From assembly GCA_964521195.1 (NCBI GenBank), contig CAZFRE010000001.1, positions 66,866-130,865 on the forward strand: a DNA stretch of 64,000 nucleotides, written 5' to 3'. This DNA is from an uncultured Eubacteriales bacterium. Lineage in GTDB: Bacteria; Actinomycetota; Coriobacteriia; Anaerosomatales; JAAXUF01. Made by a program: the position numbers and the translations under genes. Each line of letters starts with the position of its first letter. Position 1 is the first letter of the stretch. Shown in pieces: positions 2,020-26,882 of this stretch. Below the pieces are notes generated by a model. It did not search any database. It had not been told where the DNA came from and worked only from the letters and a program-made list of their open reading frames with translations.

Positions 2020-2021
2020 AT

Positions 2022-2744: not shown

Positions 2745-2764
2745 TGGTTTACCGCCGCGCTGGC

Positions 2765-2876: not shown

Positions 2877-2878
2877 AT

Positions 2879-4102: not shown

Positions 4103-4118
4103 TCTGACGCGCTAGTAT

Positions 4119-4154: not shown

Positions 4155-4183
4155 GTCCGCGCTCGGAACAGGAGCAGGAGATC

Positions 4184-6029: not shown

Positions 6030-6092
6030 CCCGCGCGCCGGCCTTCCGGCGCCCGACGGGTACACTGGACCCGAGGGGCCTGGTCGGCTAGG

Positions 6093-7547: not shown

Positions 7548-7551
7548 CGCA

Positions 7552-9026: not shown

Positions 9027-9049
9027 CCAACGACGAATAGGGGTAAGAC

Positions 9050-9589
9050 ATGACGGCTGCGCCGAACACGGTGCCGATCGTCTCAGTGGTGGGGAAGGGC
9101 GACTCCGGCAAGACGACCTTCCTCGAGAAGCTGATTCGCGAACTGGCGGATCGCGGCGTTCGCGTTGCGACCGTGAAGCATCACATCCACGACTACGACA
9201 TCGACGTCCCCGGCAAGGACTCGTACCGCCACGCGCGTGCGGGCGCCTTCGCGACGATGGTCTCGTCTCCCGAGAAGTTCGCGCTCATCCACGACGTCGA
9301 AGAGGAGATGCCGCTCGACACGATCGCCGGCGTCGCCGCGGCCGCGGGTGCGGACCTGCTCATCACCGAGGGCTACAAGCGCGAGGGCCGCAACCGCATC
9401 GAGATCAACCGCAGCGCCCGCTCCGACACGCTCATCTGCGAACCCGGCGAGATGACCGCGCTCGTGACCGACAACGAGTCGCTCGCCGCCGAGATCGCCG
9501 CGGCCGGCGTCCCGGTCTTCGGCCTTGACGACGGCTTCGTCGGCGTCGCCGACCTCATCGCCGAAAAGTTCCTGCGAGACGACGCCTGA
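9050..9589 (+). CDS. mobB: Molybdopterin-guanine dinucleotide biosynthesis adaptor MobB
   Basis: P-loop VVGKGDSGKTT followed by VATVKHH, as is typical of MobB. Confidence 0.8.
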   Translation: MTAAPNTVPIVSVVGKGDSGKTTFLEKLIRELADRGVRVATVKHHIHDYDIDVPGKDSYRHARAGAFATMVSSPEKFALIHDVEEEMPLDTIAGVAAAAGADLLITEGYKREGRNRIEINRSARSDTLICEPGEMTALVTDNESLAAEIAAAGVPVFGLDDGFVGVADLIAEKFLRDDA

Positions 9590-10614: not shown

Positions 10615-10617
10615 CAG

Positions 10618-11115
10618 ATGTCGAACGAGCTCACCCATCTCGACGAGCACGGCAACGCGCATATGGTCGACGTCGCCGATAAGGCCGTCACGCACCGCCG
10701 GGCGGTCGCGGGCGGCTTCGTCGCGATGCTGCCGGAGACGCAGGCGCTCATCACCGGCGGCAGCGCGAAGAAGGGCGACGTGCTCGCCGCCGCCCGCATC
10801 GCCGGCATCATGGCCGCGAAGCGTACGAGCGACCTGATCCCGCTGTGCCACCCGATCTCGCTCACACGCGTGAGCGTGGAGCTCGCGGCAAGCGACGACA
10901 CCGCGCGGCCCGGCATCGCGATCACCGCGACCGCCGAGACCGACGGCAAGACCGGCGTCGAGATGGAGGCGCTCACGGCAGCCTCTGTCGCGGCGCTCAC
11001 TATCTACGACATGTGCAAGGCAGTCGACCGCGGCATGGTCATCTCGGATGTGCGCCTGCTCCACAAGGAAGGCGGCAAGTCGGGGACCTGGACGCGAGAG
11101 GAGCAGGGCGAATGA
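10618..11115 (+). CDS. moaC: Cyclic pyranopterin monophosphate synthase MoaC
   Basis: 165 aa with MoaC blocks (HMVDV, LIPLCHP, EMEALTA, IYDMCKA). Confidence 0.9.
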
Positions 11116-11669: not shown

Positions 11670-12142
11670 TGGCGGACCTCAGCGTCGGCATAATCACCTG
11701 CTCGGACACGCGAGGCGAGGCCGAGGACACCGCCGGCCGGGCACTCTCGGAGCTCATCGCCGATCACGGCTGGACGCTCGCCGGCTATCAGGTCGTGCCC
11801 GACGAGCGGCTGCGCATCGAAGCGGCTATCGTCGAGATGGCCGACGGCGGTGCCGACGTCATCCTCACCTGCGGCGGCACTGGGCTCGGACCGCGCGACA
11901 TCACGCCCGAGGCGACGCTCGCGGTCTGCAACCGCCCGGTCCCCGGCATCGCCGAGCACATGCGCGCCGAGTCGCTGAAGGTCACCGGCCGCGCGATGCT
12001 CTCGCGAGCGACCGCCGCGGCGCGCGGCACCACGCTCGTGGTGAACCTCCCCGGTTCGGAAAAGGCCGCGCGCGAGTGCTTCGGCTTCGTCGCCGACCAG
12101 TTCGAGCACGCGGTGAAGATGATGCACGGCGGGGGCCACTGA
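11669..12142 (+). CDS. moaB: MoaB/MogA-family molybdenum cofactor biosynthesis protein
   Basis: GTG at 11669 lies 11 nt after GAAGGAGG. Blocks TCSDTRG, TCGGTGLGPRD and NLPGS are present. The track start at 11636 overlaps the MOSC gene. Confidence 0.8.
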   Translation: MADLSVGIITCSDTRGEAEDTAGRALSELIADHGWTLAGYQVVPDERLRIEAAIVEMADGGADVILTCGGTGLGPRDITPEATLAVCNRPVPGIAEHMRAESLKVTGRAMLSRATAAARGTTLVVNLPGSEKAARECFGFVADQFEHAVKMMHGGGH

Positions 12143-12146
12143 TCCG

Positions 12147-13349
12147 ATGGCGAATACTCGCGAGCACACCGCCCCGCGTCCTCGTACGGTCTACTTCGAC
12201 CACGCGGCGACGTCATGGCCCAAGCCACCCGAGGTCGTCTCGGCGGTTGAGCGGTCGCTGACCGAGCACGGGGGCAACCCGGGCCGTGGAGCGTACAGCA
12301 TGGCGGTCGACACCGCGCGGGCGATCCACGCCGCCCGCCGCGAGGTGGCGGCGCTGCTCGGCGTGGCAGACGCCAAGAACCTGCTGTTCCAGCCGGGCTG
12401 CACGCAGGCGATGAACCTCATGCTGTTCGGGCTGATCAAGCCGGGCGATCGCGTCGTCGCGTGTCCAACGGAGCACAACGCTGTCGCGAGGCCACTGAAC
12501 GTGCTCGCATCGCGAGGCGTCGAGGTCGTGCTCGCGGCCGCTGACGATGCTGGCTTCGTTGACGTGGACAGTGTCGAGGCGCTCGTCGCCGAGGCGCCTA
12601 CTCGCGCCGTGGTGTGCCAGCATGCCGGCAACGTCACCGGGACGATCCAGCCCGTCGCCGATCTCGCCGACATCGCGCACGAGCGTGGTGCGCTCATGCT
12701 GGTCGATGGGGCACAGGCCGGCGGCCACCTGCCCATCGACCTGTCGACCCTCGGTGCCGATGCGTGGGCCTGCTCGGGTCACAAGGGCCTGCTCGGCCCG
12801 CAGGGCATCGGCGTGTTGTATCTCGCGCCGGAGTGCGAGCCCGACGAGTTCGTGTTCGGCGGGAGCGGGCAGGGCGAGAGCGAGCATCCGATAGGCCCTC
12901 GATCGCGACCCGACCGCTACGAGGCCGGCACGCCCAACACGCCGGGTATCGTCGGGCTGGGAGCGGCGGCGCGGTGGCTCGCCGAGCACGGCGATGAACA
13001 GCGTGCACACGAGGCCGCGCTGACTCGGAGGCTCGTAGCCGGTGTGCGCGCACTGCCCGGCTACCGCGTGCTCGGCCCCGATCGCGACGAGCCGCGCGTA
13101 CCGGTCGTCTCGGTGGTGCACGAGCGCGCGCAAGCCGATCAGCTCGCGTTCACGCTGGACCGGAGATATGGAATTGCTGTGCGTTCCGGCCTGCACTGTG
13201 CGCCGTGGGCACATACTTCGCTCGGGACGATCGAGTCCGGAGCCTTGCGAATGAGCATCGGATTCGGGTTGAGTGAGGCCGACGTTGACCTCGCGATCGA
13301 GGCGCTCGGCGTTCTCGGCAAGGAGTACGGTGGCTCTGAGCAGGCGTGA
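12147..13349 (+). CDS. Class-V aminotransferase / cysteine desulfurase family protein
   Basis: PLP-lysine context CSGHKGL and a C-terminal active-site-like RSGLHCAP. Located at the end of the Moco biosynthesis gene string. Confidence 0.75.
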   Translation: MANTREHTAPRPRTVYFDHAATSWPKPPEVVSAVERSLTEHGGNPGRGAYSMAVDTARAIHAARREVAALLGVADAKNLLFQPGCTQAMNLMLFGLIKPGDRVVACPTEHNAVARPLNVLASRGVEVVLAAADDAGFVDVDSVEALVAEAPTRAVVCQHAGNVTGTIQPVADLADIAHERGALMLVDGAQAGGHLPIDLSTLGADAWACSGHKGLLGPQGIGVLYLAPECEPDEFVFGGSGQGESEHPIGPRSRPDRYEAGTPNTPGIVGLGAAARWLAEHGDEQRAHEAALTRRLVAGVRALPGYRVLGPDRDEPRVPVVSVVHERAQADQLAFTLDRRYGIAVRSGLHCAPWAHTSLGTIESGALRMSIGFGLSEADVDLAIEALGVLGKEYGGSEQA

Positions 13350-13373: not shown

Positions 13374-13402
13374 TTTGACACAGTGTCCACTCGCCCGTAG
13401 AT
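13374..13402 (+). promoter_or_regulatory. Candidate sigma-70-type promoter for the TPR/NHL genes
   Basis: TTGACA (13374-13379), 17-nt spacer, TAGATT (13397-13402). It lies in the 126-nt gap upstream of the TTG start at 13476. Confidence 0.4.
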
Positions 13403-13475
13403 TCGTGCGGGCGTTCTGAGAGCGTCGACGAACGGCCCCGGCAGGCCACGGCGCTGAAGTAAGGGAGATCTCGCT

Positions 13476-14477
13476 TTGTTGAAGCGGGTAACGCTGCTCG
13501 ATGCAGCCATCGGAGTTGTGATCGTCGCTATCCTTCTCGTCGGTGGGTACTTCGCCTACTCGGTCTATGCGAACAACCAGGCGTTGCGCACCGGATCCCC
13601 GGCCAACCGCGAGATCGAGGCGCTCAAGCAGAAGCTCAAGCTCAAGCCCAACGACGTGGAGACCCGCATGCGCCTGGCGCAGGCGCTTTCCGTCGCCGGC
13701 CGTGGAGACGACGCGATCGAGCAGTACCAGCAGGTACTCAAGCTCAACGACGAGTGGGTGCCAGCGCTGTCGGGCGTCGGCTTCGAGCTGATGAAGCAGA
13801 AGGACTGGAAGGGCGGCGAGGAGTACTTCAAGCGAGTCATCAAGCTCACTGAAGGCAAGACGCCCGACATGGCCAGCGGCAGCTCCGCCGAGATCGCGAA
13901 CTACTATGTGGGTATCGCGAGGATGGAGCAGCGCGACTACTCGGGCGCGGCCGGCTACCTGAAGCAGGCTCTGCGCATGCGCCGCGATGCGTCGGACACC
14001 GCATACGCGCTCTCGGTCTGCTACGGCAAGCTCGACATCACCGACGGCCAGCGCGAGATGCTGGCGTACACACTCCAGTTCGATCCCAAGATGCCTGAGG
14101 CGAACTACGACTACGGCAAGATACTGCTGGCCTCCGGCGACGTCGCTGGCGCCGCCGAGCACTTCAGGACTTCGTCCACATCCGCACCGTATAAGCAGGA
14201 GCCCAAGGACGAGCTCGCGAAGCTCGGCTCGGCCACGGAGCGGTTCGCCGAGGCGAAGAAGCTCGCGTCGACCGATGCGAGCTCGGCACTCGTGGAGGCG
14301 AGAGTGGCCGCTGCGCTCGACCCCGAATCCGTGGAGTCGCTGCTACTCGTGGGCACACTCTACGAGAAGGTCAAGAAGAAGGACGACGCGAAGACCACGT
14401 ACGAGAAGGTATTGGTCATCGATCCCGGCAACGCCACCGCAACCGCCGGACTGAAACGGGTGAAGAATGGCTCCTGA
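13476..14477 (+). CDS. Membrane-anchored TPR repeat protein
   Basis: TTG start 9 nt after AAGGGAG. One N-terminal TM helix, then several TPR-like 34-aa repeats. Overlaps the downstream gene by 11 nt. Confidence 0.7.
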   Translation: MLKRVTLLDAAIGVVIVAILLVGGYFAYSVYANNQALRTGSPANREIEALKQKLKLKPNDVETRMRLAQALSVAGRGDDAIEQYQQVLKLNDEWVPALSGVGFELMKQKDWKGGEEYFKRVIKLTEGKTPDMASGSSAEIANYYVGIARMEQRDYSGAAGYLKQALRMRRDASDTAYALSVCYGKLDITDGQREMLAYTLQFDPKMPEANYDYGKILLASGDVAGAAEHFRTSSTSAPYKQEPKDELAKLGSATERFAEAKKLASTDASSALVEARVAAALDPESVESLLLVGTLYEKVKKKDDAKTTYEKVLVIDPGNATATAGLKRVKNGS

Positions 14478-16086
14478 CGAAAGCCCGGAGGTCACGGAAG
14501 TAGCGAGCGATGAGGACTCCGTCCTCCCGACGGAGTCGCTTGCGAACGCCATCGCCCGTGACGGGCTGCGCCCGGAGGACCCGCGGAAGCTGACGAGCCG
14601 CGAGCGCCGCCGCCGCCTCATCCTTCTGGCGATTCTGGCGCTGCTGCTCCTGCTGCTCAGCTACCTCGCCTACTACTACACGATGAACCGCAGAATGCCG
14701 AGCCTGGGGCTCGCGCCTGCGGGCAGCGACTACATCGAGCCCCCGCGCTACCTCTACTCGATCTCCGCTGACGGCGCCCAGTCCCTCGTCCGGCCGGTCG
14801 GTGTCGGCGTCGCCGATGACGGCCGGGTCTACGTCGTCGACTTCGGGCACCGGCGGGTGAGCGTCTTCAGCAATCCCGGCCGCTACCTGTTCTCCTTCGA
14901 TACGACCGCCGACGGCAAACTCGTCAATGCGGTGCACCTGGTCATCAACGATGGCGAGGTGTGGGTTTCCGAGCGCTCGAACCGCACGATCTACGTCTTC
15001 GATCTCGAGGGCAACTACCTGCGCAAGTTCGTCCCGAAGAACGAACCTGATCTGAAGTGGACCCCCCTCGCGTTCTCGTTCGACGCGAGCGGGGCACTGC
15101 GCGTCACCGACGTGGGGGACACGAACAACCACAGGCTGCACTACTTCTCCGTGGATGGGAGTCGGACTGCCACCATCGGGAAGACCGCGCAGGTCAACTC
15201 GCTGCAGGAGCAGCCGGGCACGTTCCTGTTCCCGAACGGCGTCGCGGTGGACGCCAAGGGCGAGGTCTACGTCTCCGACGGCGACAACCGACGCGTCCAG
15301 GTCTTCGATCCCAACGGGGCGTTCCTGCGCTTCATCGACACGAGCGGCGTGCCCCGGGGTATCGCCATCGATCAGAAGAGTCGACTCTATGTGGCCGATG
15401 CTCTCGCGCACACGGTCTCCGTGTTCGACCTGAAGGGCAAGATGCTCACCCAGTTCGGCGAGCGTGGGTTTGGCCCGGGCCAGTTCAACTACCCCAACGA
15501 CATCGCCATCGACAGGCGGGGTCGCATCTACATCACCGACCGCGAGAACGGCCAGGTACAGGTGTGGGGCTGGTCGGTCGCGCAGATTCCGCCGGTCCCG
15601 GTTCCGAAGACACCGTTGGCATGGCTTGCCGCCCTGGCGTGCTGCCTGCCGCTCATCCTGCTGCCGCTATTGCTCCTTGCCCGCCGCAAGGTCCGCGTCG
15701 TCGTGACGCCGGAGTTCATGGATGCCTTGGAACTGGTCGGCGAAATCCGGCCGACCGCCGAGAAGGCGCGCGTGCGGCTTATCGCACCGGAAGAGGATCT
15801 GGCGCACTACGAGGGCCGGGTCGTAGACTCCATCGTGCTGACCGACCTGCTCACGTTCGAGGAGTACTCGGAATCGGACGCGCGTGCGCTCATGGAGAAG
15901 TACAAGATCACGCAGCGTCCGGCGATGCTGCTTTCGATGGCATGGCGCGCTAAGGCACTGGCCACGGACGACAACGACCTGCGACTCCTGGCTCTGCTGG
16001 CGGAGATCAGAACGGTCGACGTCAAGGAGTTCCGTGAGATCTATCTCAAACGCGACGTTGTCGCTGAAGAGGTGGATGGAGAGTAG
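14467..16086 (+). CDS. Two-TM NHL-repeat beta-propeller protein with ~135-aa cytoplasmic C-terminal domain
   Basis: A TM helix at about residues 52-72, then NHL-type repeats (for example GVAVDAKGEVYVSDGDNRRVQVFD and DIAIDRRGRIYITDRENGQVQVW). A second TM follows (LAALACCLPLILLPLLLLA), then a charged C-terminal domain. Confidence 0.7.
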   Translation: MAPDESPEVTEVASDEDSVLPTESLANAIARDGLRPEDPRKLTSRERRRRLILLAILALLLLLLSYLAYYYTMNRRMPSLGLAPAGSDYIEPPRYLYSISADGAQSLVRPVGVGVADDGRVYVVDFGHRRVSVFSNPGRYLFSFDTTADGKLVNAVHLVINDGEVWVSERSNRTIYVFDLEGNYLRKFVPKNEPDLKWTPLAFSFDASGALRVTDVGDTNNHRLHYFSVDGSRTATIGKTAQVNSLQEQPGTFLFPNGVAVDAKGEVYVSDGDNRRVQVFDPNGAFLRFIDTSGVPRGIAIDQKSRLYVADALAHTVSVFDLKGKMLTQFGERGFGPGQFNYPNDIAIDRRGRIYITDRENGQVQVWGWSVAQIPPVPVPKTPLAWLAALACCLPLILLPLLLLARRKVRVVVTPEFMDALELVGEIRPTAEKARVRLIAPEEDLAHYEGRVVDSIVLTDLLTFEEYSESDARALMEKYKITQRPAMLLSMAWRAKALATDDNDLRLLALLAEIRTVDVKEFREIYLKRDVVAEEVDGE

Positions 16087-16115
16087 TTGACCCGGCCCTT
16101 TTAGGGGTCTATTGT
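16087..16115 (+). promoter_or_regulatory. Candidate sigma-70-type promoter for the formate dehydrogenase/cytochrome operon
   Basis: TTGACC (16087-16092), 17-nt spacer, TATTGT (16110-16115). It sits about 80 nt upstream of riboswitch copy C. Confidence 0.4.
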
Positions 16116-16197
16116 GGGGCTACGCGGAGTTTGTGACGATTGTTGCAAGCCAGCGAGCGGTCCGGCAGTCGCTTGCGAACCGCCTTGAAAGCGCGAC

Positions 16198-16306
16198 ACA
16201 GACGATCTCCGAGCCTTCCAGCCTAAGGCGTCCCCAAGACGCTATGGCTTCAAGGCCGATGGGTGCCAGTGGAAACGCTGACGCCTCCCGACTTGGAAAG
16301 GAGACC
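16198..16306 (+). promoter_or_regulatory. Moco/Tuco riboswitch-like element, copy C (terminator-coupled)
   Basis: Blocks CUCCGAGCC, GCCUA, a GAAA hairpin (16067+200: 16267-16280), GCCUCCC (16282-16288) and GGAAAGGAG (16295-16303). The GAAA-hairpin stem covaries among the three copies (ATCGAGG/CCTCGAT, GCGG/CCGC, CAGTG/CGCTG). Confidence 0.7.
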
Positions 16307-16394
16307 GCACACACCGGGAGGCCCCAGGATGGGGACCTCTTAGCTGTGCGGCGCTTTCCTCGGGGTAAGGAAGATCGGCATGAGTACGAAAACG

Positions 16395-16543: not shown

Positions 16544-16570
16544 TACCTCCGAGAGAAAGGAATGGAGGTA
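16544..16570 (+). promoter_or_regulatory. SD/start-codon sequestering hairpin
   Basis: TACCTCC (16544-16550) is complementary to GGAGGTA (16564-16570). The latter holds the SD and the first base of the ATG at 16570. Confidence 0.4.
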
Positions 16571-19500
16571 TGGCTACTAAAGACACAGGGCAGTCGTTCG
16601 GCGGGATGACACGACGCGCGTTCGTCAAGACGGCCGCTGTCGCGAGTGCGGCAGCGAGCTGTGGACTCAACGTCGCGTTCAACGCCGAGAAGGCGCTCGC
16701 GTACGAGAACGACACCACGAATTACAAGGTCACGAACACCACCTGCCCGTACTGCTCGGCGAGTTGTGGCCAGCGCGTTGTTGTCGCCCTCACGGGAGCC
16801 AACACCGGCAAGGTCGTCGACGTCTATGGGGACTTCGAATCGCCGATGAACTCGGGCGGCCTGTGCTCGAAGGGCGCCGGCTCGCTTCAGTTGGTCAACA
16901 ACCCGCGGCGCATCGGCGCGTATCCTGGCGCTCACCCGGTCAACGATGTCTTCGCTGCCGACACGACGACGTACCCCGATGGCGTCGCGTATCGCCGCGA
17001 AGAAGGGGTCACGGCAGGATGGGTGCCGGTCACGCTGAACGCGGCGATGGCCGAGATCGCCTCGACGCTTGTCGCCAAGCGTAACCTCGATCCCGCGACC
17101 AACAACAGCAAGGATGTCGCGTTCTTCGGCTCCTCGCACATGAACAACGAGTCGAACTACATGTACCGCAAGATCATCGCGAACTTCGGTACCAGCAACG
17201 TCGAGCATCAGGCTCGTATATGACACTCGTCCACCGTGGCCGGTCTGGCCGCAGCATTCGGACGAGGCGCGATGACGAACCACTGGTCCGACATCGCCAA
17301 CTCCACGAACATCGTGGTGTGGGGTGCCAACCCCGTCGAGAACCACCCCGCTTGTGTGGCGCATATGAATCGCGCGCGCTTCCCCAAGCAGTTCTTCAAG
17401 TTCCTCGCTGACGGCGTCACGCCGGATCCGCGGGCGAACAAGACCCCTGCGAAGCTCATCGTCGTCGACCCGCGCAAGACGCGTACCGCGCTGCAGGTCG
17501 ATGAGTCGCGCGGCGACCGCTACATCCGGATTCGCCCCGGCACCGACATCGCGCTCGGCAACGGCCTCATGCGCTACATGATCAACAAGATCGAAGCGCT
17601 TCCGGGCACGGACCCGACGCGCGTTGCCTTCTTCGCGTACCTCAACCAGAGCGGCAACGGCTCGTTCTTCAACGACGGAGCTGCTTCCGGCACTGCAGTT
17701 CTTGACGAGTCGGTCGTGCTCACCGGGACGGCCGCGACCGCGCTCGCAAACGCGGGCATCTATACCACGCCCGCGATCGTGGTGACGAGCTCCGACGGAC
17801 TCACGACCTACGCCGCAACCGACTACACGCTGGATGCCGCCAACGGTACGCTCGCGCGCACCGCGACCTCGGCGATCCCCTCAGGCGCCACGGTCCTGGT
17901 CGACTACACGTACGGTGCGTGCGCGCTCATGACGAACGTCGCAGGCAGCTCCAAGTACACGGACGCCAGGTTCCTCCTGACCGCAGACGGTACGGACTAC
18001 GACCGCGAGACCAAGAACCCGGGCACGTCGCGCCAGATCACGGCCTTCCCGAAGAAGGCTGCATCCGTCACGGCCGACCCGAACACTGTGTACAACCGCT
18101 TCAAGAAGCACCTCGAGCCGTACACGCTCGCGGTCACAGCCGACATCTGCGGATGCACGACTGCCGACATCGAGTTCCTCGGCAACGCGTTCATCGCGAA
18201 CAGCCGCTGCGCCACGTCACCGGTGACGATCACCGATCGTTCCGTGACGATGACCGGTACCGTGGCACAGACGCTTGGCCACACCGGCCTCACCGGCGTG
18301 GTGGTCACCAGCTCCGACGGGCTCACCACCTACACGCTGACGACGGATTACACCATCGATGCCACCCAGGGCACGATCACTCGTGTCGCCACGGGCAGCA
18401 TCACCGCCGGTCAGACGGTACTCGTGGACTTCACGGGCACGCCGAGCGACCCGCGTGATCCCGCGTACCGCGCGACCACGATGCTGTATGCCATGGGCCT
18501 CACACAGCACACCTGCGGTGGTCAGAACGTCAAGACGTTCGCCGAGATCCAGACGCTCATGGGCAACATGGGTCGGGCCGGTGGCGGCATCAACGCCCTC
18601 CGCGGCATCCACAATGTCCAGGGTTCGACCGACATGGGCCTGCTGTACGGCAACATCCCGGCGTACTCAGGCAACCCAGGCACCCAGGTCAACGGTGGCC
18701 CGAACTGGAACACCACGCCTAGCTCGAACAACGCGTTCGGCATGTACATGGATGCTCTGTGGGGCACGCCGCTCTCGGGCACGGGCAACAAGCTCCAGAT
18801 GAACAACTCGTACGACGACGCGTACAACACGGCAGCGATGGGACTGCAGCAGCGCGGCTTCTACAACATGACGCTGAAGTGGTTCGGCGACTACACGACG
18901 ATCAACGGTATGGCGCTCGGAGCTGCGAAGCGTGCGGCCGTCGACGCGTGCTACTCGTTGTGGCCCAAGGGCAACGGCGACGACCACATCACGATGTTCC
19001 GCAAGATGGGAACGGGCGCCACGAAGGCCGCAGTCGTGTGGGGTCAGAACCCCGCCGTCACCGAGCCGAACCAGGGCGCGGTGCGTGCAGGACTGTACAA
19101 CCTCGACCTGCTTGTATGTGTCGACATGTTCGAGAACGAGACGGCAGCAGTTCCCCGCAAGAACGGCGGCGTCACGTTCCTGATCCCGACCGCCTCGCAT
19201 GTGGAGAAGGCCGGATCGGCGACGAACTCCGGCCGCACGCTTCAGTGGCGCTACAAGGCCGCTGAGCCTTCCGGCAACACCAAGGACGACAACGAGCTGC
19301 TGCTCCGGTTCGCCAGTGCGCTCGACACCGCTGGTGCGTTCTCGCACATCAAGTCCGTGTGGGACACGAACGGCATCACGTATGACACCTCGGTCTACAA
19401 GCAGCTGTACGGCAATCCGTACGGCGGCTACCTGCCGGGAACCAACACCTTCGCCGGTGTCTCCGGTGCTGCCGAGATGGTCACGCTGCGCAAGGTCATC

Positions 19501-20838
19501 AGCGACCCGCTGACGTACCAGGCGACCCCCGTGGTCGACGAGTCGATCACGCTCACCGGCACGACGGCGACCTCTCTCGCCCACGCGAACCTGATGGCGA
19601 CCGTGGTCGTGAAGAGCTCCGATGGCCTGACGACGTACACGCAGGGGACCCACTACACGGTGGACTACCCCGGCGGCAAGATCACCCGCACGTCGACATC
19701 CACGATTCCGAGCGGCGCATCGGTGCTCGTCACCTATGCGTACAACGGTACCGTCACCGGTTCCGAGTGGGTTGCCGAGGCGGTGTACCGCGAGATGTGT
19801 CTCCCGAGCGCCAATGGAGGCACCCTCTGGATCTACACCGGCGCGTACAACAACCTCTCGACGAGCCCGACGGACAACAAGGCCGCTTGGCAGCCGGCAT
19901 GGGTCTGCCTCAACCGCGCGAAGAACCGCGATCGCACGGACGACGGCAACACCCTCGCGTACCACGGCTGGGGCTACGCGTGGCTCGTCAACCGGCGCGT
20001 GCTCTACAACAACTCCGAAGTCGTTGGCGACGTCGCCGACTTCTTCATGGGCCCGGACTCGGCTTCGAGACTGTTCGTCTCCACGAGCACCGCGGTTCTC
20101 AACTACTCGCGCTGGTACCGCACGATCCACCGTCTCTCGGACCTGCCCAGCCCGGTTCTCGCAGGCGACACGACCAGCCCGCACTACGCTGGGACTGCGT
20201 ACTCGCTCGCGGGCCGCTTCTCGGCTCACACCGAGCCGTACGAGACGCCGCGGCAGAACCTGCTGGCAAAATGGGGCCGCAACACCCGGTACACCGCAAC
20301 GGCGCCTGCGTCGAACCTGCCGTGGAACCTGGTCAAGGACGACACCCGCGTTGCTGGCCGAGGCTACGTCAACGGCGTTGGCGGCAAGACCGTCACCGAC
20401 CCGTCGGCCGCAAGCTTCCCGCTGGTGCTGACCTCCATCCGGTGCGTCGAGCACTTCCAGGGTGGCCCGATCACCCGTAACAACTGGTGGAACGTCGAGC
20501 TCGAGCCCGAGCCGTGGATCGAGATCAACTCCTCCGACGCCGGCAAGTACGGCATCAAGGACGGCGACTACGTCAAGGTCATCACCGCCCGTATCGTCAA
20601 CGATGCAGGCGCAACGGTGATGCCCGCCAGCTATGGCTCAGGCTTCCGCGCCCGCGTGGGTACGGGCCTCACCTCGAGCCAGAAGGTGGCCCCGGGTGTG
20701 GTCGCGATCCCGTGGCACTGGGGTGACAAGGGTCTGTCGACCGGCTCGCGCGCGAACGACATCTGTATCGATGCGTTCGACTCGAACACGGCGATACCCG
20801 AGTACAAGGCCTGTCTCTGCAAGATCGAGAAGATGTAG
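16570..20838 (+). CDS. fdnG: Tat-exported selenocysteine-containing molybdo/tungstopterin formate dehydrogenase catalytic subunit (FdnG-like), enlarged by three repeat insertions
   Basis: Track ORFs 16570-17223 and 17236-20838 are in the same frame, separated only by the TGA at 17221. The junction reads EHQARI-U-HSSTVAGLAAAFGRGAMTNHW, compared with E. coli FdnG QARV-U-HGPTVASLAPTFGRGAMTNHW. Also present: Tat motif TRRAFVK, N-terminal CxxCxxxC...C FeS motif, and INALRGIHNVQGSTDMG. Confidence 0.85.
17221..17266 (+). promoter_or_regulatory. UGA selenocysteine codon plus SECIS-like hairpin
   Basis: CTCGTCC (17226-17232) pairs with GGACGAG (17260-17266). An inner GGCC/GGCC stem carries an apical GGUCU loop, as I recall for the E. 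coli fdhF SECIS (GGUC loop). Confidence 0.65.
17698..17916 (+). repeat. Intragenic ~72-aa repeat module 1 within the FdnG-like gene
   Basis: VLDESVVLTGTAATALANAG...VVTSSDGLTTYAATDYTLDAANGTLARTATSAIPSGATVLVDYTYG. Confidence 0.8.
18223..18438 (+). repeat. Intragenic ~72-aa repeat module 2 within the FdnG-like gene
   Basis: VTITDRSVTMTGTVAQTLGHTG...VVTSSDGLTTYTLTTDYTIDATQGTITRVATGSITAGQTVLVDFTG. Confidence 0.8.
19531..19749 (+). repeat. Intragenic ~72-aa repeat module 3 within the FdnG-like gene
   Basis: VVDESITLTGTTATSLAHAN...VVKSSDGLTTYTQGTHYTVDYPGGKITRTSTSTIPSGASVLVTYAYNG. Confidence 0.8.
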
Positions 20839-20851: not shown

Positions 20852-21790
20852 ATGACTGTTATGGCGATTCTCCAGGATGCCGACAAGTGCATGCGCTGCA
20901 ACGGGTGCGTTATTGCCTGCAAGCGCGAGTGGAACCTCGCTTCGCCGACTAGCATCTCAGACGTCATCCCGCAGAGGTCCATCGTGAACCCGCGCCAGCG
21001 GCTCGCGATCAAGAGCCTCAAGCGTGGCGACATGGGCCCGTTCGTCCGCTTCAGCTGCTGGCACTGCCCGGATCCCCCCTGCGCCTATGAGTGCCCGTAC
21101 GGGGCGATCAAGAAGGAGCCGACGGGTGCGATCAACGTCGATGCGTCGAAGTGCCAGCCCAACCTGTGCAACACCGGCCCGGGGCCCAAGCCCTGCGAGG
21201 TCGGCTGCCAGCGCGGTGGCTACCCGAAGGTAGGCCAGGTCTACGCTTCCGGTCCCTATGCCGGCGAGCAGAAGATGAACAAGTGCACGCTGTGCACGGG
21301 CCGTGCCGGCGCCGATGGCGTGGTCGATGCGAGCACCGCTCTTCCGACGCGCGCTCGCAAGAACTCGTCGGGCGACTTCGTCAGCGATCTGCCGCTTCCT
21401 AGCGGTGGAGTGCTCCCGAATCCGACGGTCCCCGAACTCGCACACGAGCCGGCATGCGTCTCTTCGTGCCCGGCCAAGGCGATGAAGTGGGACTCGAAGG
21501 CTAATATCCTCGCGTACTTGAACGATCCCGCGAACGGGTTCAAGCTCTCCAACGGTACGCAGAACTGGATCGGCAACGGCGCGATCTACTGGGCAAGCAA
21601 GAAGGTCTTGCTCACCCCGCCCAAGGCCGACCCGTTCATCGAGGATCATGTCGCACCGATGGCGAGCAGCATGCTCTCCTCGGGCCGCATGGTTGTTCCG
21701 ACGCTCGTGCTCGGCGGACTCGCCGCCCTCGGTGCCCGCAAGGCTCGGGTGGCTGCCGAAGAAGCCGACGCTGTGAAAGAGGAGGTGTAG
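20852..21790 (+). CDS. fdnH: Four-cluster 4Fe-4S electron-transfer subunit (FdnH/DmsB-like) with C-terminal TM anchor
   Basis: Cys motifs CMRCNGCVIAC, CWHCPDPPCAYEC, CQPNLC...CEVGC and CTLC...CVSSCP. A C-terminal hydrophobic helix (VVPTLVLGGLAALGA) is followed by charged residues. Confidence 0.8.
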   Translation: MTVMAILQDADKCMRCNGCVIACKREWNLASPTSISDVIPQRSIVNPRQRLAIKSLKRGDMGPFVRFSCWHCPDPPCAYECPYGAIKKEPTGAINVDASKCQPNLCNTGPGPKPCEVGCQRGGYPKVGQVYASGPYAGEQKMNKCTLCTGRAGADGVVDASTALPTRARKNSSGDFVSDLPLPSGGVLPNPTVPELAHEPACVSSCPAKAMKWDSKANILAYLNDPANGFKLSNGTQNWIGNGAIYWASKKVLLTPPKADPFIEDHVAPMASSMLSSGRMVVPTLVLGGLAALGARKARVAAEEADAVKEEV

Positions 21791-21793: not shown

Positions 21794-23062
21794 ATGACGA
21801 CCAAGAGACTTGCACTCGCACTCGTCCTCGCCGCCGTGGTGTTGATGGTTCCGTCGGTCGCATTCGGCAACTTCGCGATTCACGGCAACTACGTGCAGGA
21901 CACTGACGCGTGCGCCGGTTGTCACCGTGCCCACACGTCGGTTTCCACGATCACCTGGACCGATTCGGCCGCAGGTGACCAGCACTCCGCTCTGCTCGTG
22001 ACGTCAGCCACTGAGATGTGGCAGTTCTGCTACGCGTGCCACGACGCCACGAACCAGGGCTCGGACACCAACGTCCAGCAGGGCATCTACACCGGTACGC
22101 TGTACGGCAGCACGGACGCCACGCTCAACGGTGGTGGCTTCGAAGAGGTCGACGGTGCACCGGTCACGTCCACCCACATGTACAAGGGCTCCAGCTGGGG
22201 CGCGTACGGCGGTGGCTACTTCGGTGACGGCAAGACCTTCGCCGCTGACTACAGCGACGCCGGTCAGGGCCCCGATGCATTCATGAACGGTACGGGCAAC
22301 GCCATCAAGATGGACTGCGCGACCTGCCATGACCCGCACGGTTCGCCCAACTACCGCATCCTGAAGACCGTCGTGAACGGCAACATCGTCGGCGAGTACA
22401 CGCCCACCGGCGACCCGACCGATCCCGACCCGAACGGCTTCGTGTCCTCCGTCGAGACCGGATGGCCGACCAACGGCTTCCGTCTGCACACCGCGTATCC
22501 GGGATACCAGCCGGACTACACGACGGCCCGTTACGCCAAGGGCTATGACATGCAGACCTCGGCGATCAACACCACCAAGGGCATGAGCGGTTGGTGCGCT
22601 GGCTGCCACAGCACGTACCTCGGCCCGGTCGAGACGTTCACCCGCACCAATGGTGTCGGCGTCGAGACCACCTATGCCAGCGTCGCGAGCACGTACAACG
22701 CCGGCGACGGCGGCGGCCTGGCCCTGCGTCACAAGCACCCGATCAACGTCGAGCTCGATACCTACAACGGTCCCGACAAGTCGTCGATGATCGTGACGGA
22801 CACGACGCTGCCGCTTGCGCATAACCTTGCTGAAGCGGGCTCGCACACCAACCAGTCTTCGGACTGGATCGAGTGCCTGACCTGCCACCGCGCCCACGGT
22901 ACCGCGGCTGACATGACCGGCTACGCGTCCAACGCTGGCGCAGCATCGGTCGTGGACACCGACGGTATCGCTCGCAACGAGTTCGTCGCGCAAAACCCGG
23001 TGCCCTCTGCACTCCTGCGCTACGACAATCGTGGCGTGTGCGAGAGGTGTCACAACAAGTAA
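21794..23062 (+). CDS. Hexaheme c-type cytochrome, OmcS-like
   Basis: Signal peptide/anchor, then six CxxCH motifs at 21911, 22028, 22316, 22595, 22874 and 23039. The motif contexts (CAGCHRAH, CATCHDPHG, MSGWCAGCH, CLTCHRAHG, C-terminal CERCHNK) and the size match my recollection of Geobacter OmcS (CEGCHTMH, CSSCHDPHG, MSEWCANCH, CLSCHRAHA, CNKCHAKD). Confidence 0.6.
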   Translation: MTTKRLALALVLAAVVLMVPSVAFGNFAIHGNYVQDTDACAGCHRAHTSVSTITWTDSAAGDQHSALLVTSATEMWQFCYACHDATNQGSDTNVQQGIYTGTLYGSTDATLNGGGFEEVDGAPVTSTHMYKGSSWGAYGGGYFGDGKTFAADYSDAGQGPDAFMNGTGNAIKMDCATCHDPHGSPNYRILKTVVNGNIVGEYTPTGDPTDPDPNGFVSSVETGWPTNGFRLHTAYPGYQPDYTTARYAKGYDMQTSAINTTKGMSGWCAGCHSTYLGPVETFTRTNGVGVETTYASVASTYNAGDGGGLALRHKHPINVELDTYNGPDKSSMIVTDTTLPLAHNLAEAGSHTNQSSDWIECLTCHRAHGTAADMTGYASNAGAASVVDTDGIARNEFVAQNPVPSALLRYDNRGVCERCHNK

Positions 23063-23101: not shown

Positions 23102-23131
23102 GAAGGGCCGGGGAGGAATCCCCGGCCCTTT
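23102..23131 (+). terminator. GC-rich hairpin after the cytochrome gene
   Basis: GAAGGGCCGGGG / CCCCGGCCCTTT stem with a 6-nt loop, 40 nt after the stop codon. No clear U-tract. Confidence 0.4.
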
Positions 23132-23140
23132 CCCTATCGA

Positions 23141-24616
23141 ATGAGCCCTCCCGAGGTCGGTTTGGAGCGCCCGTTGGCCGAGCGTCCACGAAAGGTGCTG
23201 CCCGCCGCACTCGCCGCCCTTGTCGGCGCGGCCGGCAGCTTCGTGCTGTCCACCATCGCGATGGACACGATGGCCGACACGGCTCTCGTCGGGCTATCCG
23301 CCTGCGTGGCGTTTCTGTTCGTGCTGGCGATCCAAGGTGCGTCCGGTCTCCGCGCCCTGCGTGCTGCCGAGAGGGGCTCCCTCGCGCTGGCGGCATCCGG
23401 TGGGGCGCTTGCCCTGTGGGCGGCGCCGTTGCTCACGCTCTCGCAGCGGGCATCTGACTCACCGTCCGGCGCCGACGTCCTGTTCATGACCACGTCGGCA
23501 TGGGGGCTCGCCGTCGTGGCTGCATCGTTCGGGGTTCGGAGCCAGCGGCCGCCGGTGACAGCACTCGCCGGGGCGGTGGCCTGCGTCGCGGGTGCCGCTG
23601 GCCTGCTCGTCAGCTGGGAGAGCCCAAGCTCCTTCGCGCCGTTCGCGAAGTTCCCGGTCCGCGAGGCGCTCATGCTTGCGGCGGGCGTGCTGTTCGCCGC
23701 AGGCGTGTTGGCGCTTGCGACCGCCGCGCGCAAGGCGGGAACCCGTGTGGCCGCGCTTGCAGGGCTTGGCTCGGCGGCCGCACTCGGGCTCGTCTCGGCG
23801 CTTCCCAGCCTCCCGGCTGCCGATGAGATCGGGCGGGGGGCGCTCTTCCCGTGCCTGTATCTGGGCGTCATGGGTACCATATTCGCCTTGGGATGGATCC
23901 ACGCCTCGAACGAGGTCGGCGTGTCGCGCGCATCGGTGCCGCTGTTCGGCGTACCGATCGCCGTGATGTCGCTGTCCGCACTCGAGCGGGTCACGACCGT
24001 CTATGGGCCCGACCCCGTCAACTGGCCCGCGGCTCTGTCGGGGGCCGCCGTGATCATCGCGGGATGTGCGGTGGTCTGGCTCGCTGTACCCGTTGAGCGA
24101 GCGGAGTCGACCCAAGGGCGCCGTCTCTCCCTTGCGTTGGGCATCGCCGTGGCAGGCTTCGCGGCCGCTGCAGCGTCACTGCTCACGCCGGCGCTTAGCG
24201 CCGTGTCTGAAGGTGGCACCGGAGTGCCGTTTCGGGCGGAATGGACGATGGTCGGAGCGGAATCGGCGTCCGGCTGGCTGGTCCTTGCTGCGGCTGGCCT
24301 GACGCTTGCATCTGTGTGGATGGCTCGGCGTGGCGGAACGCCGGTCACATGGGTCCCGGCCGCGGTCGCTGCGGTCGTGGCTTGCGTGGCGGTCATCCCG
24401 TTGCGTGACCTCACGTTGCACACGTGGAACCGGTGGGTCCCTGCCGACGTCCAACAGACGTACGGGACGGAGTACTCTCGTCTGGTGACAGGATTCGTAG
24501 TCGACCCGACTCGGCTGGTCGCAGTGGTGCTCTCGCTGGTCGCGCTCGTGCTAGTGGCGGCGACGGTACGCCGAGCAGGTTCGGCTGGACAGCTACTCGA
24601 GGAGGACGCGCGATGA
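23141..24616 (+). CDS. Polytopic membrane protein, unknown function (Ala/Leu-rich, at least 10 predicted TM segments)
   Basis: ATG at 23141 chosen because it lies downstream of the hairpin (track start 23099). Hydrophobic segments run throughout. No motif recognised. Confidence 0.5.
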   Translation: MSPPEVGLERPLAERPRKVLPAALAALVGAAGSFVLSTIAMDTMADTALVGLSACVAFLFVLAIQGASGLRALRAAERGSLALAASGGALALWAAPLLTLSQRASDSPSGADVLFMTTSAWGLAVVAASFGVRSQRPPVTALAGAVACVAGAAGLLVSWESPSSFAPFAKFPVREALMLAAGVLFAAGVLALATAARKAGTRVAALAGLGSAAALGLVSALPSLPAADEIGRGALFPCLYLGVMGTIFALGWIHASNEVGVSRASVPLFGVPIAVMSLSALERVTTVYGPDPVNWPAALSGAAVIIAGCAVVWLAVPVERAESTQGRRLSLALGIAVAGFAAAAASLLTPALSAVSEGGTGVPFRAEWTMVGAESASGWLVLAAAGLTLASVWMARRGGTPVTWVPAAVAAVVACVAVIPLRDLTLHTWNRWVPADVQQTYGTEYSRLVTGFVVDPTRLVAVVLSLVALVLVAATVRRAGSAGQLLEEDAR

Positions 24617-25461
24617 GGCGTCTTGTCAGGTTCGGACTGGCCGCCGCGATGGTAGTGGTGGTCGGGGCGGTGTCGGCGTGCCAGCGTACGGTCGAGGTCC
24701 AGACCGGGACGCGGATCGTGGACGCGCAGGGCCGCGTGATCTCCGAGGACATCCAGACACTGCGCGTGCCTCCGGAGAGCGCGAGTGCGTATCGGATCAA
24801 CACCATCACCCAGGAGTCGACCTCAAGCCCGCAGATAGCGGCGCTCTACGCCGACGCCCAGTCCGCGATCGCCGCGGGGGATCTCAAGACGGCCGGGCAG
24901 AAGCTCGCCGAGGTCATCGCTCTCGATGCGAGCTTCGGCAAGGCCAAGCAGCAAGCCGACGCGATCGCCAAGGGCGAGAAGGTCAAGCCGGACACGTCGA
25001 ACCCCACTTCGAACCCAAAGCCGTCGACTCCGTCGACCACCACCGGTACTCCCGGCGGCAAGCCCCCCGTGGAGAACGGCTCGGCGCTCACGCGATGGAC
25101 ACCGGACGTGCTCACCGGCTTCACGGCCGCGGTTGCCGCCGTCGACCCGCTGTCGGTCTCGCGGCAGTACACGCCCAACATGGGTAATCCGGCGAGCTCG
25201 CTCGTCATCGTCGCCGAGCAGTTCCGCAACTCGACGGCTGCCAAGCGCGCCCTGAAGTCGAACGTGAAGGACCGATACCCGGACAACTCCAGCTCATCCA
25301 CGGTCAACGGGCATACGGTCTACTTCGGTACCGATGGCAAGTTCGCCGTCGCGGGGTTCACCGACGGCGCGGTGATGGTCGCGCTCGAGGCATCGCCACG
25401 ATCCGGGTCGGCCTCGTCGATGAAGAGCGTGCTCTCGCAGGCGGTCGAGCAGCTGCCGTAG
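24613..25461 (+). CDS. Putative lipoprotein, unknown function
   Basis: ATG at 24613 overlaps the upstream stop (ATGA). Signal peptide plus lipobox (VGAVSAC). A Pro/Thr/Ser-rich linker is present. Confidence 0.55.
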   Translation: MRRLVRFGLAAAMVVVVGAVSACQRTVEVQTGTRIVDAQGRVISEDIQTLRVPPESASAYRINTITQESTSSPQIAALYADAQSAIAAGDLKTAGQKLAEVIALDASFGKAKQQADAIAKGEKVKPDTSNPTSNPKPSTPSTTTGTPGGKPPVENGSALTRWTPDVLTGFTAAVAAVDPLSVSRQYTPNMGNPASSLVIVAEQFRNSTAAKRALKSNVKDRYPDNSSSSTVNGHTVYFGTDGKFAVAGFTDGAVMVALEASPRSGSASSMKSVLSQAVEQLP

Positions 25462-25488: not shown

Positions 25489-26337
25489 CTACCGCCGCCG
25501 GCTCGCGCCTCCGCGGCCCCGCGCTCGCGGTCCGTGCTCGTTCTCGTCGGTGAGAAGGGGCACGTCGCCGGTTCTGATGCTCCCCGAGTAGAGGTCTTCA
25601 GCGAACCGCTCGAACGCGGGCACGGTCACGAGGCCGCCGACGCGCGAGGCGATCCTCTCGGCGAGTTCGTCGGGGGTGAGCTGTGCGTCGCTGGCGAGGA
25701 CGACGATGTTGCGCGAGTCGTCGACGGCGTTCTCCGCGATGCCGAGCGGGAAGACCCACACGTTGCGCCAGACGTTGGCGAGTGTGCGGTGCAAGCTGCG
25801 GAACATCCGCGAGTGCGGCCCGTAGACGGCGCCGAACACGTTCCACGCGATGACGCCGTCTCCAGACAGGCGGTCCTTGCACTCGCGCATGAACTCCTCG
25901 GTGAGCAGCGGGCGCGGGACGCGGTCGTCGTCGAAGGCGTCGACCACGATGATGTCGTAGGGCTCGGTGCGCCGCGAGAGGAACTCGCGGCCGTCGGCGA
26001 TGTGGACGTCGATGCGCTCGTCGTCCGGGAGTTCGAAGAGCGCGTAGGCTACCTCGACGACCTCGCCGTCGATCTCGGCGACATCGATGTGCATGGCAGG
26101 GTAGTCGCGCCACATGCGCTTCACGAGGGAGCCGCCGCCGAGGCCGATGACGAGCGTGCGCGTCGCATCGGGCTTCACTGCGAGCGTGATGTGCAGGTAG
26201 CCGACGTACTCGATGGTGGTCTCGAACGGGTCGTCGATGAGCATCGAGCTCTGCTGGTTGCGCTCGAACTTGAGCAGCCGCACACCCTCGTTGTCGGTGA
26301 CGGTGAGCCGGTGGTAAGGGGAGTCGAAGTCAGGCAT
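25489..26337 (-). CDS. Spermidine synthase-like (polyamine aminopropyltransferase family) protein
   Basis: Class I MTase-like fold motif VIGLGGGS and the DVAEIDGEVV block typical of the spermidine synthase family. Confidence 0.6.
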   Translation of the reverse strand: MPDFDSPYHRLTVTDNEGVRLLKFERNQQSSMLIDDPFETTIEYVGYLHITLAVKPDATRTLVIGLGGGSLVKRMWRDYPAMHIDVAEIDGEVVEVAYALFELPDDERIDVHIADGREFLSRRTEPYDIIVVDAFDDDRVPRPLLTEEFMRECKDRLSGDGVIAWNVFGAVYGPHSRMFRSLHRTLANVWRNVWVFPLGIAENAVDDSRNIVVLASDAQLTPDELAERIASRVGGLVTVPAFERFAEDLYSGSIRTGDVPLLTDENEHGPRARGRGGASRRR

Positions 26338-26882
26338 CAGTCGAGCCAGTGCACCTCGCCGCTCGCGAGCTGGTAGGCCGCGCCGACGACAACCGGGTGG
26401 TCCTCAGGGAAGCCTGCGAAGTCGAACCACTCGCGCATCTCGGCGACGGACTCGACGACGTGCTCGTCGACCGCCTCGGCGAGCGTGGCGGACTCGATGT
26501 GGATGTGGTCGGTGACCGGCGCGAGGTAGGCCGGCGCGTCGCCGCTCATCGCGGCGGTGACTGCCCCGCAGTCCTCGTGCCCGAGCACGACCACGAGCTG
26601 CGCGCCGAGTGCCTCAACGGCGTAGCGCACGCTTGCGTAGCCGGCCTCGGAGATGACGTGGCCGGCGGTACGCACGACGAAGAGCTCGCCCGGCCCTACG
26701 TCGAAGAGCGTCTCGACGGGTACGCGCGAGTCCGAGCAGCCCACGACAACGGCCCACGGCTGCTGCCCGTCGACGAACGCCTGGCGCTGGGCGGGCGTGA
26801 AGTGCGGCCTTTGCCGACCTTCCGCGAAGCGCTCGTTGCCCTCGCGCAGCATGTGGAGTGCGATGTCAGCGGGGTGGCTCAC
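26337..26882 (-). CDS. Beta-class carbonic anhydrase
   Basis: Zinc-site motifs CSDSRV and HEDCGAV at the spacing typical of beta-CA. Confidence 0.8.
   Translation of the reverse strand: MSHPADIALHMLREGNERFAEGRQRPHFTPAQRQAFVDGQQPWAVVVGCSDSRVPVETLFDVGPGELFVVRTAGHVISEAGYASVRYAVEALGAQLVVVLGHEDCGAVTAAMSGDAPAYLAPVTDHIHIESATLAEAVDEHVVESVAEMREWFDFAGFPEDHPVVVGAAYQLASGEVHWLD

Follow-up and report, generated by a model that had tools for sequence, protein, structure and literature searches.

An OmcS-like hexaheme cytochrome encoded with an exported formate dehydrogenase in a coriobacterial genome: a candidate extracytoplasmic electron conduit

Introduction

To our knowledge, the cytochrome nanowires that have been structurally established so far come from diderm Desulfuromonadia and Myxococcota and from archaea. 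The closest described relative of the protein studied here is OmcS, the hexaheme nanowire subunit of Geobacter sulfurreducens (GSU2504; PDB 6EF8/6NEF). In OmcS, 12 histidines serve as axial heme ligands, 11 from the own subunit and one, on heme 5, from a neighbor, and the order of the hemes along the fiber is the order of their motifs (Filman et al., PMC6584659). Of the intermolecular ligand, the same paper says only that it comes from the neighboring molecule (PMC6584659). The related hexahemes OmcT and OscC are not known to form wires (PMC12977616). Here we describe an OmcS-like hexaheme c-type cytochrome gene at positions 21794..23062 (+ strand) of a 64,000-nucleotide stretch, referred to as the window, from an uncultured bacterium of the Anaerosomatales (Coriobacteriia; GenBank assembly GCA_964521195.1, contig CAZFRE010000001.1, positions 66,866 to 130,865). 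The gene is the third of a formate dehydrogenase (FDH) operon.

Electron transfer across the thick Gram-positive wall is poorly understood. An OmcS homolog in a Coriobacteriales genome was noted in 2020, in one sentence and without context: the protein of "S27 BJP Coriobacteriales" from an anode biofilm had 28% identity to OmcS and all six motifs, and the genome was the fourth most abundant in that biofilm (Arbour et al. 2020, PMC7399161). The sentence gives no linkage to FDH or hydrogenase, no histidine ligand set, and no accessory genes; the protein almost certainly belongs to the family described here. Clusters of FDH and multiheme genes were reported in 2021 and 2022 (PMC7943316, PMC9686372), with the relation to OmcS unrecognized. 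In EMTCatB1 (Coriobacteriaceae), the FDH genes 1c0408 and 1c0407 and the multiheme gene 1c0406 ranked in the top 10% of transcripts on an operating biocathode; 1c0406 was not recognized as OmcS-like, and OmcS is mentioned nowhere in that paper (Kobayashi et al. 2021, PMC7943316). For growth, Parvivirga hydrogeniphila (Anaerosomatales) depends on formate or H2 together with Fe(III). Quinones were not detected in it, it forms pili-like appendages only with ferrihydrite, and its FDH genes are located inside a multiheme cluster (PMC9686372). More generally, Anaerosomatales in culture use Fe(III) or sulfur compounds to oxidize formate and H2 (PMC9686372). In the literature searched, no paper joined OmcS to Coriobacteriia, OPB41, Anaerosomatales, or an FDH operon beyond the one-sentence note of 2020.

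Results

The cytochrome gene runs from an ATG start to a TAA stop and encodes 422 amino acids. Its third codon positions have a GC content of 0.84 in a window of 67.5% GC, and a Shine-Dalgarno sequence, AGAGGAGG, is located 6-7 nt 5' of the ATG, which itself lies 3 nt past the fdhB stop. Six CxxCH motifs start at C40, C79, C175, C268, C361, and C416; the corresponding nucleotide positions (21911, 22028, 22316, 22595, 22874, and 23039) agree exactly with those listed in a preliminary description of the locus made from the DNA letters. All 12 cysteines of the protein fall inside these motifs, where ~0.01 CxxCH would be expected by chance (at ~3% Cys and 4% His). In all six frames of the window, no other open reading frame (ORF) contains two or more CxxCH motifs. 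The N-terminal signal proposed earlier for the precursor proved to be a Sec signal peptide (~residues 1-25) with a family-conserved cleavage site (consensus A-x-A before and NFAIHG after the cut); P20, A23, and N26 are invariant around this region in the family alignment. The protein has no membrane anchor of its own. It is a Sec-secreted hexaheme c-type cytochrome with more than 1100 homologs; the family comprises 675 representative clusters (50% identity; E ≤ 1e-3).

The OmcS strings that the preliminary description had cited (CSSCHDPHG, GMSEWCANCH, LRHP, and CLSCHRAHA) are all present in OmcS, which also contains CEGCHTMH and a C-terminal CNKCHAKD. The mature OmcS sequence used was 100% identical to PDB 6ef8_A. 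In BLASTP, the cytochrome matched mature OmcS with an E value of 4e-10 and 28% identity over hemes 3-6, and the OmcS precursor with an E value of 1.5e-10 (residues 5-422 against 6-433). The values for OmcT and OscC were 1.8e-8 and 8e-6. When a profile of 52 family sequences was compared with the PDB, OmcS was the sole significant match (E 1.5e-10), and the alignment paired the first heme motifs of both proteins (aCaGChrah with ECEGCHTMH). Comparison of the cytochrome family with 45 OmcS-family sequences by hhalign yielded a probability of 99.7% and an E value of 1.4e-25. The six CxxCH motifs are collinear in the two proteins, and the 12 cysteines and six proximal histidines shared columns with those of OmcS in three independent alignments. 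A single-sequence phmmer search of the PDB with the cytochrome returned nothing; OmcS was reached by BLASTP and by profiles only. Because the pairwise E value is ~1e-10 and the phmmer search was empty, surveys for OmcS that rely on BLAST thresholds are likely to miss this clade.

Other multiheme families were matched less well. The paired-CXXCH domain (PF09699/TIGR01905) scored above cut-off (55.2 versus 20.6 bits and 51.6 versus 25.2); since it is a generic multiheme module, the match is silent on function. Pfam Cytochrome_C7 was also above cut-off, but over residues 30-90 only. The Pfam models Cytochrom_c3_2, Cytochrom_NNT, and MtrC-MtrF_II-IV were all below their cut-offs on the cytochrome, and the NCBIfam models for NrfH and DmsE-type decahemes were far below theirs. 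A better match to the NrfB, c3, or c7 families was therefore not borne out, given that OmcS was the sole significant PDB match and the c3, NapC, MtrC, and NrfH models stayed below cut-off. The claim that the motif contexts are homologous to those of OmcS, and not to NrfB/c3/c7, held in the BLASTP, profile, and hhalign comparisons alike. At the level of sequence, the cytochrome is a remote but clear homolog of OmcS with 23-30% identity. A neighbor-joining tree resolved three clean clades, namely the OmcS family, an FDH-type clade, and a hydrogenase-type clade. The FDH-type proteins, which are 23% identical to the OmcS family, form a clade of their own apart from it; a phylogeny of this kind had been proposed as a check on the relation.

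The conservation of histidines was evaluated in a 329-sequence alignment comprising 113 close relatives, 95 representatives at 50% identity, and 120 OmcS-family proteins. Exactly 12 histidines of the cytochrome are conserved to 93-100% in all three groups (H30, H44, H47, H83, H128, H179, H182, H272, H315, H365, H368, and H420), and the remaining five are not conserved. The twelve pair one-to-one with OmcS H2, 13, 16, 51, 110, 144, 147, 243, 257, 332, 335, and 404. Six of them lie outside the CxxCH motifs: H30, H47, H128, H182, H315, and H368 align with OmcS H2, H16, H110, H147, H257, and H335, with 95-100% conservation in their own family and 97-100% in the OmcS family. From the twelve-for-twelve match we infer that these six correspond to the actual OmcS ligands.

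His47 (codon 21932..21934, + strand) is the positional equivalent of OmcS His16 in HMMER, MAFFT, and hhalign alignments. It belongs to the first motif, CAGCHRAH, at the codon named in the preliminary description. The further proposal that a histidine is conserved at the inter-subunit position of OmcS was borne out by the alignments: His47 is invariant among 97 aligned sequences and 96-100% conserved among the 329.

The operon begins with fdhA (16570..20838, + strand), which encodes the catalytic subunit of FDH (TIGR01553, E 1e-91; Pfam Molybdopterin and Molydop_binding). The TIGR01553 score is under the equivalog cut-off because the match is split at the selenocysteine codon and by insertions. 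FdhA carries a Tat signal (MTRRAFVKT) and a selenocysteine codon, TGA, at 17221-17223 in the motif EHQARI-U-HSSTV; the in-frame stop was TGA in all 54 loci checked. For a SECIS-like hairpin after this codon, the fold was indistinguishable from that of shuffled sequence (z = 0.16). After a gap of 13 nt follows fdhB (20852..21790, + strand), the electron-transfer subunit with four [4Fe-4S] clusters (Fer4_11 and Fer4_7; matches of the HybA, FDH-beta, and DmsB types). The C terminus of FdhB has a short hydrophobic stretch followed by RKAR, which may act as a membrane anchor, the stretch being below the hydropathy threshold. The third gene, after a gap of 3 nt, is the hexaheme cytochrome; no FdnI-type cytochrome b subunit is encoded in this place.

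A molybdenum/tungsten-cofactor (Moco/Tuco) riboswitch precedes fdhA at 16196..16314 (+ strand; Rfam RF01055, 68 bits versus a gathering threshold of 36, E 2.9e-14), and it was found before fdhA in seven of seven other loci tested. This position and its conservation place the cytochrome under putative molybdenum/tungsten-cofactor control. The riboswitch is thus predicted to control the fdhA-fdhB-cytochrome operon, and the gene order indicates that the cytochrome is co-transcribed behind it with a Tat-exported, selenocysteine-containing FDH (FdhA-FdhB). A weak promoter-like site lies before the riboswitch (16087..16115, + strand; TTGACC-17-TATTGT, 9/12 matches). Another is found further upstream at 13375..13403 (+ strand; TTGACA-17-TAGATT, 10/12 matches), before a pair of genes for a TPR and an NHL-repeat protein. 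The number of such sites in the region is not above chance, and for the latter only the position is suggestive.

Three repeats of ~70 amino acids were observed within fdhA (17707-17922, 18235-18438, and 19534-19752), with the pattern ...LTGT.A..L...VVV.SSDGLTTY...Y.D...G.I.R...G..VLV.Y. They match NCBIfam NF052337, "phage tail tube protein" (E 2.6e-28), and on account of this match look like Ig-like surface domains. Across related loci the length of fdhA varies from ~2.8 to 4.1 kb, so the repeat inserts are lineage-specific. On the extracytoplasmic enzyme, they could serve in adhesion or as a scaffold.

Related loci were scanned with one genome per species, which gave 77 loci from Coriobacteriia, other Actinomycetota, or Thermoleophilia, nearly all of them metagenome-assembled genomes. 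The order FdhB-cytochrome-membrane protein, where the last is a polytopic protein with ~14 transmembrane (TM) helices, was present in 56 of the 77. A TPR gene is located upstream of the cytochrome in most loci, including those without enzyme genes. The NHL gene is always paired with the TPR gene, and in most loci the pair occurs together with the cytochrome; some Thermoleophilia have the cytochrome gene immediately behind TPR-NHL. At least 13 loci encode a Tat-exported [NiFe]-hydrogenase, with a paralogous cytochrome of ~44% identity after its small and large subunits. One such cluster (L075, 6522-9977) has the order TPR-NHL-small subunit-large subunit-OmcS-like cytochrome-cytoplasmic 450-amino acid protein, and its small subunit has a Tat signal without a C-terminal anchor. 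The same type of cluster was found in L062, L069, L072, L073, L077, L078, and others. In two loci, L053 and L056, an FDH follows the cytochrome of a hydrogenase-type cluster, an arrangement in which a single cytochrome may work with both enzymes.

Ahead of the TPR gene, most clusters of the FDH and hydrogenase types also carry a gene for a cytochrome of ~550 amino acids with ~20 CxxCH motifs (1609-3276 in L075). This gene is absent from the window, where a class-V aminotransferase (12123-13349) sits in its place. Longer relatives of the hexaheme cytochrome are either hexahemes with insertions or proteins with 10-11 hemes. One locus (L074, 5788-8802) encodes a 1005-amino acid protein in which an OmcS-like N terminus with hemes 1-4 only is joined to ~620 amino acids of unrelated sequence.

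The gene that follows the cytochrome in the window (23141..24616, + strand) encodes the 14-TM protein of 491 amino acids. It occurs after the cytochrome in the 56 FDH-type loci and never in hydrogenase-type loci. No relative was found in Pfam, in NCBIfam, in a PDB profile search, or in a scan of all 20 orthologs. In this protein no His or Cys is conserved, but a W-E-x-P-S-S motif is invariant, and there are conserved R, D, P, G, and E residues. The cluster ends with the gene (24613..25461, + strand) for a lipoprotein of 282 amino acids with a lipobox ending in SAC; it is conserved after the 14-TM protein and had no family matches. About 91% of its orthologs have a Cys pair and a His in the N-terminal region (...VCTxGE...TCDxH...), which are lost in the window and in its closest relative, L010. 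Between the cytochrome stop and the start of the membrane protein gene lies a GC-rich hairpin (23116-23142; gggccgggg...ccccggccc, then TTT). It may attenuate downstream expression; a terminator scan did not call it.

The association of these two genes with FDH bears on the possibility that the cytochrome replaces FdnI and passes electrons inward, through the 14-TM protein, to the quinone pool or another membrane acceptor, so that the enzyme would be a respiratory FDH and energy would be conserved. FDH-N-type enzymes such as FdnGHI normally reduce quinone. Moreover, it is specifically in FDH-type clusters (56 loci) that the cytochrome is succeeded by the 14-TM protein and the lipoprotein, and L053 and L056 keep both with FdhAB even though the cytochrome is upstream. 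We nevertheless regard inward transfer as improbable. The 14-TM protein lacks conserved His or Cys residues for heme b or iron-sulfur clusters and resembles neither NrfD/PsrC nor FdnI nor any Pfam or PDB family, and hydrogenase-type clusters keep the cytochrome without it. In addition, the cultured relative that grows on formate with Fe(III) has no detectable quinones (PMC9686372).

Upstream of the riboswitch lie the genes for the TPR protein (13458..14477, + strand; Pfam TPR families) and the NHL-repeat β-propeller protein (14464..16086, + strand; Pfam NHL, E 1e-29). The TPR protein has an N-terminal TM helix (residues 11-29); its coordinates are those of the open frame, the start codon not being fixed. 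For the NHL protein, with TM helices at residues 52-70 and 388-406, the predicted layout is a TM helix, an extracytoplasmic propeller, a second TM helix, and a cytoplasmic tail of ~130 amino acids. The Geobacter omcS locus (L079) has the order NHL protein, omcS, omcT, OscB, OscC, OscD, OscE, and OscF, in which OscB is a spermine-synthase-like membrane protein and OscD a propeller. The NHL protein of the window resembles both the Geobacter NHL protein adjoining omcS (E 8.5e-13) and OscD (E 2e-3) at the level of repeats only. The idea that the accessory proteins represent an assembly machine shared with the Geobacter Osc system was rejected, as only generic NHL/TPR repeat similarity was found. 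A propeller gene next to an OmcS-type gene is a shared theme, for which orthology is not claimed. In the Geobacter omcS locus, nothing corresponds to the 14-TM protein or the lipoprotein.

Further genes surround the cluster. Positions 1-11115 contain, along the + strand, genes for Mod-type ABC transport, a MobA-FdhD fusion, MoeA, MobB, MoaA, and MoaC. The fusion joins a MobA-like NTP transferase and FdhD, the FDH sulfurtransferase, in one ORF (6030-7547) and belongs to this molybdenum/tungsten-cofactor supercluster upstream of the FDH operon. Three RF01055 riboswitches were found in the window; besides the one before fdhA, two are located in the ABC-transporter region (1903-2031 and 2761-2888). 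On the other side of the cluster, a spermidine-synthase-like gene on the - strand (25489-26403) has a domain resembling Geobacter OscB (E 9e-8). Its interpretation as an OscB analog was discarded, because the adjacency is restricted to the closest relatives and is probably coincidental.

Discussion

The cytochrome is probably the electrical outlet of the FDH to the cell exterior. With somewhat better than even confidence, we propose that it forms a dedicated extracytoplasmic electron conduit for the enzyme, possibly as a polymer. According to this proposal, formate would be oxidized by FdhA at the outer face of the cytoplasmic membrane of a monoderm Coriobacteriia cell, and electrons would pass through the iron-sulfur chain of FdhB to the heme chain of the cytochrome, which would accept them in place of an FdnI cytochrome b. 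The cytochrome would then conduct them across the wall to acceptors outside the cell, for example Fe(III) minerals, humics, electrodes, or partner cells. Its tethering or assembly would most likely fall to the membrane-anchored TPR and NHL-propeller proteins. In the paralogous cluster, the cytochrome would play the same role for the Tat-exported [NiFe]-hydrogenase.

If the OmcS pattern holds, His47 would ligate heme 5 of the next subunit in a head-to-tail manner, and the resulting oligomer or filament would be rooted at the enzyme. Judging from the analysis as a whole, we place head-to-tail association through His47 into an oligomer or filament at a little less than an even chance. A polymer would be favored, speculatively, by the lack of an own anchor in a monoderm cell, by the exactly twelve conserved histidines, and by the linear heme order of OmcS. 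The preliminary description had regarded the +3 spacing of the second histidine in CAGCHRAH as what polymerization would need. This part stands, in that the histidine is required for polymerization of the OmcS type. As a diagnostic feature it fails, because OmcT and OscC also keep an invariant His16 equivalent and because CxxCHxxH occurs three times in the cytochrome (hemes 1, 3, and 5), being a general feature of paired-CXXCH modules. His47 therefore does not discriminate; it would permit OmcS-type polymerization without predicting it and appears necessary but not sufficient.

Several further observations count against a polymeric conduit. The role of His16 as the inter-subunit ligand of OmcS, reportedly found by Wang et al. 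2019, is presumed here. AlphaFold2 models of the cytochrome without hemes were poor (predicted local distance difference test scores of 54 and 62), and Foldseek searches were empty. No tandem fusions of two OmcS-like units were found in a Rosetta-stone search of the relatives, and the cluster in the window has no equivalents of OscB, OscE, or OscF when compared with the Geobacter locus; the outer-membrane parts of the Osc system are not expected here because the host is monoderm. The operon position suggests a 1:1 enzyme subunit over a bulk polymer, and the conserved 14-TM protein might instead link the system to the membrane. Finally, a circuit with both half-reactions outside the cell would have no obvious means of energy conservation.

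Some of these points would fit a cytochrome that does not polymerize, i.e. a redox subunit or soluble partner in the manner of the tetraheme cytochrome c3 of Desulfovibrio. Such a monomer or closed dimer would sit on FdhAB or on the TPR/NHL proteins and pass electrons to other multiheme cytochromes, with His47 as a ligand within the chain or within the closed dimer. The subunit-like position of the gene behind the same riboswitch is consistent with this, as are the absence of the Osc machinery from the cluster and the OmcS paralogs that have the same histidine and are not known as wires; the ~20-heme cytochrome encoded upstream of TPR in most loci could then be the real wall-spanning conduit. 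The window, however, lacks the large multiheme gene; over its 64 kb, no multiheme ORF other than that of the OmcS-like protein is present. Exactly 12 conserved histidines for 12 ligand positions, one-to-one on OmcS, together with a linear heme order and an intermolecular heme 5 ligand in OmcS, also argue against a self-contained monomer. An unanchored secreted monomer would, moreover, be lost from a monoderm cell unless it were tightly bound. Taken together, we see a minority chance for a non-polymerizing partner. The most far-reaching version of the conduit proposal is likewise tentative and rather unlikely to hold in full: an OmcS-type filament would be rooted on the membrane-tethered FDH or [NiFe]-hydrogenase, with TPR/NHL as assembly or anchoring machinery, and would constitute a quinone-independent circuit across the wall, linking formate or H2 with minerals, electrodes, or partner cells.

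The proposed wiring could also run backwards, so that formate would be made from a cathode or mineral. It may even operate mainly in this direction: the cytochrome would gather electrons (from cathodes, Fe(0), reduced minerals, or a partner cell) and pass them to FDH or hydrogenase, so that syntrophic partners would be supplied with formate or H2. Both FDHs and [NiFe]-hydrogenases can work in either direction. The EMTCatB1 cluster is highly expressed on a methane-producing biocathode, for which the authors proposed direct electron uptake (PMC7943316). On the other hand, formate and H2 are oxidized by the cultured Anaerosomatales, with Fe(III) or sulfur compounds (PMC9686372), and the related Coriobacteriales genome reached high abundance in an anode biofilm (PMC7399161). 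We consider a mainly reversed flow possible rather than likely. As direction is not encoded in the sequence, it represents a variant of the conduit proposal and not an exclusive rival.

That exported FDH and hydrogenase are systematically tied to an OmcS-type clade is new, as are the TPR/NHL core module, the riboswitch control, the twelve-for-twelve ligand mapping, and the size of the family. OmcS relatives are present in hundreds of Coriobacteriia and Thermoleophilia genomes, set in operons of FDH and hydrogenase, which are the two classic low-potential electron-input enzymes. The hypothesis names both the protein that would take the enzyme's electrons and the residue that would mediate polymerization. 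If a filament rooted on the enzyme were to be verified, it would be the first Gram-positive cytochrome nanowire and the first hard-wired to an electron-donating enzyme. Organisms to which this is relevant include the cultured Parvivirga hydrogeniphila and Anaerosoma tenue as well as EMTCatB1 from a biocathode enrichment, and the subject touches on subsurface iron cycling, electromethanogenesis, and microbially influenced corrosion.

Among the known systems, OmcS is of similar size (~420 amino acids) and shares with the cytochrome a Sec signal, a conserved histidine soon past the cleavage site, the pairs H47/H16 and H365/H332, the segment LRHxH315P/LRH257P, and a last heme motif 2-3 residues from the C terminus. 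Each of the two genes is adjoined by an NHL-repeat gene. The cytochrome differs from OmcS in its separate clade, its monoderm actinomycetotal host, its FDH or hydrogenase operon, the Moco riboswitch, the lack of OscB-F homologs in its vicinity, and a variable insertion between heme motif 4 and the LRHxHP segment. OmcS forms filaments, which for the cytochrome are hypothetical. The hexahemes OmcT (GSU2503) and OscC (GSU2501) share the motif order and likewise conserve the His16 equivalent. A closer counterpart is the orthologous cluster of EMTCatB1 (L042), with the order TPR-NHL-FdhA-FdhB-cytochrome-membrane protein-lipoprotein and a cytochrome of 42% identity.

In Desulfovibrio, the periplasmic FdhABC3 and [NiFe]-hydrogenase deliver electrons to the tetraheme cytochrome c3, whose gene sometimes lies in the operon of the enzyme. 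The arrangement in the window follows this logic, in that a Tat-exported enzyme would likewise be coupled to a multiheme c-type cytochrome. The Desulfovibrio cytochrome c3, however, is a small tetraheme protein of unrelated fold in a diderm periplasm, whereas the protein described here is an OmcS-family hexaheme outside a monoderm membrane. In FDH-N of E. coli (FdnGHI), the third subunit FdnI is a membrane di-heme cytochrome b that reduces menaquinone. Both systems have a Tat-exported α subunit with selenocysteine, a four-cluster β subunit, and the gene order α-β-third subunit, and in this order the cytochrome holds the position that FdnI has in E. coli FDH-N.

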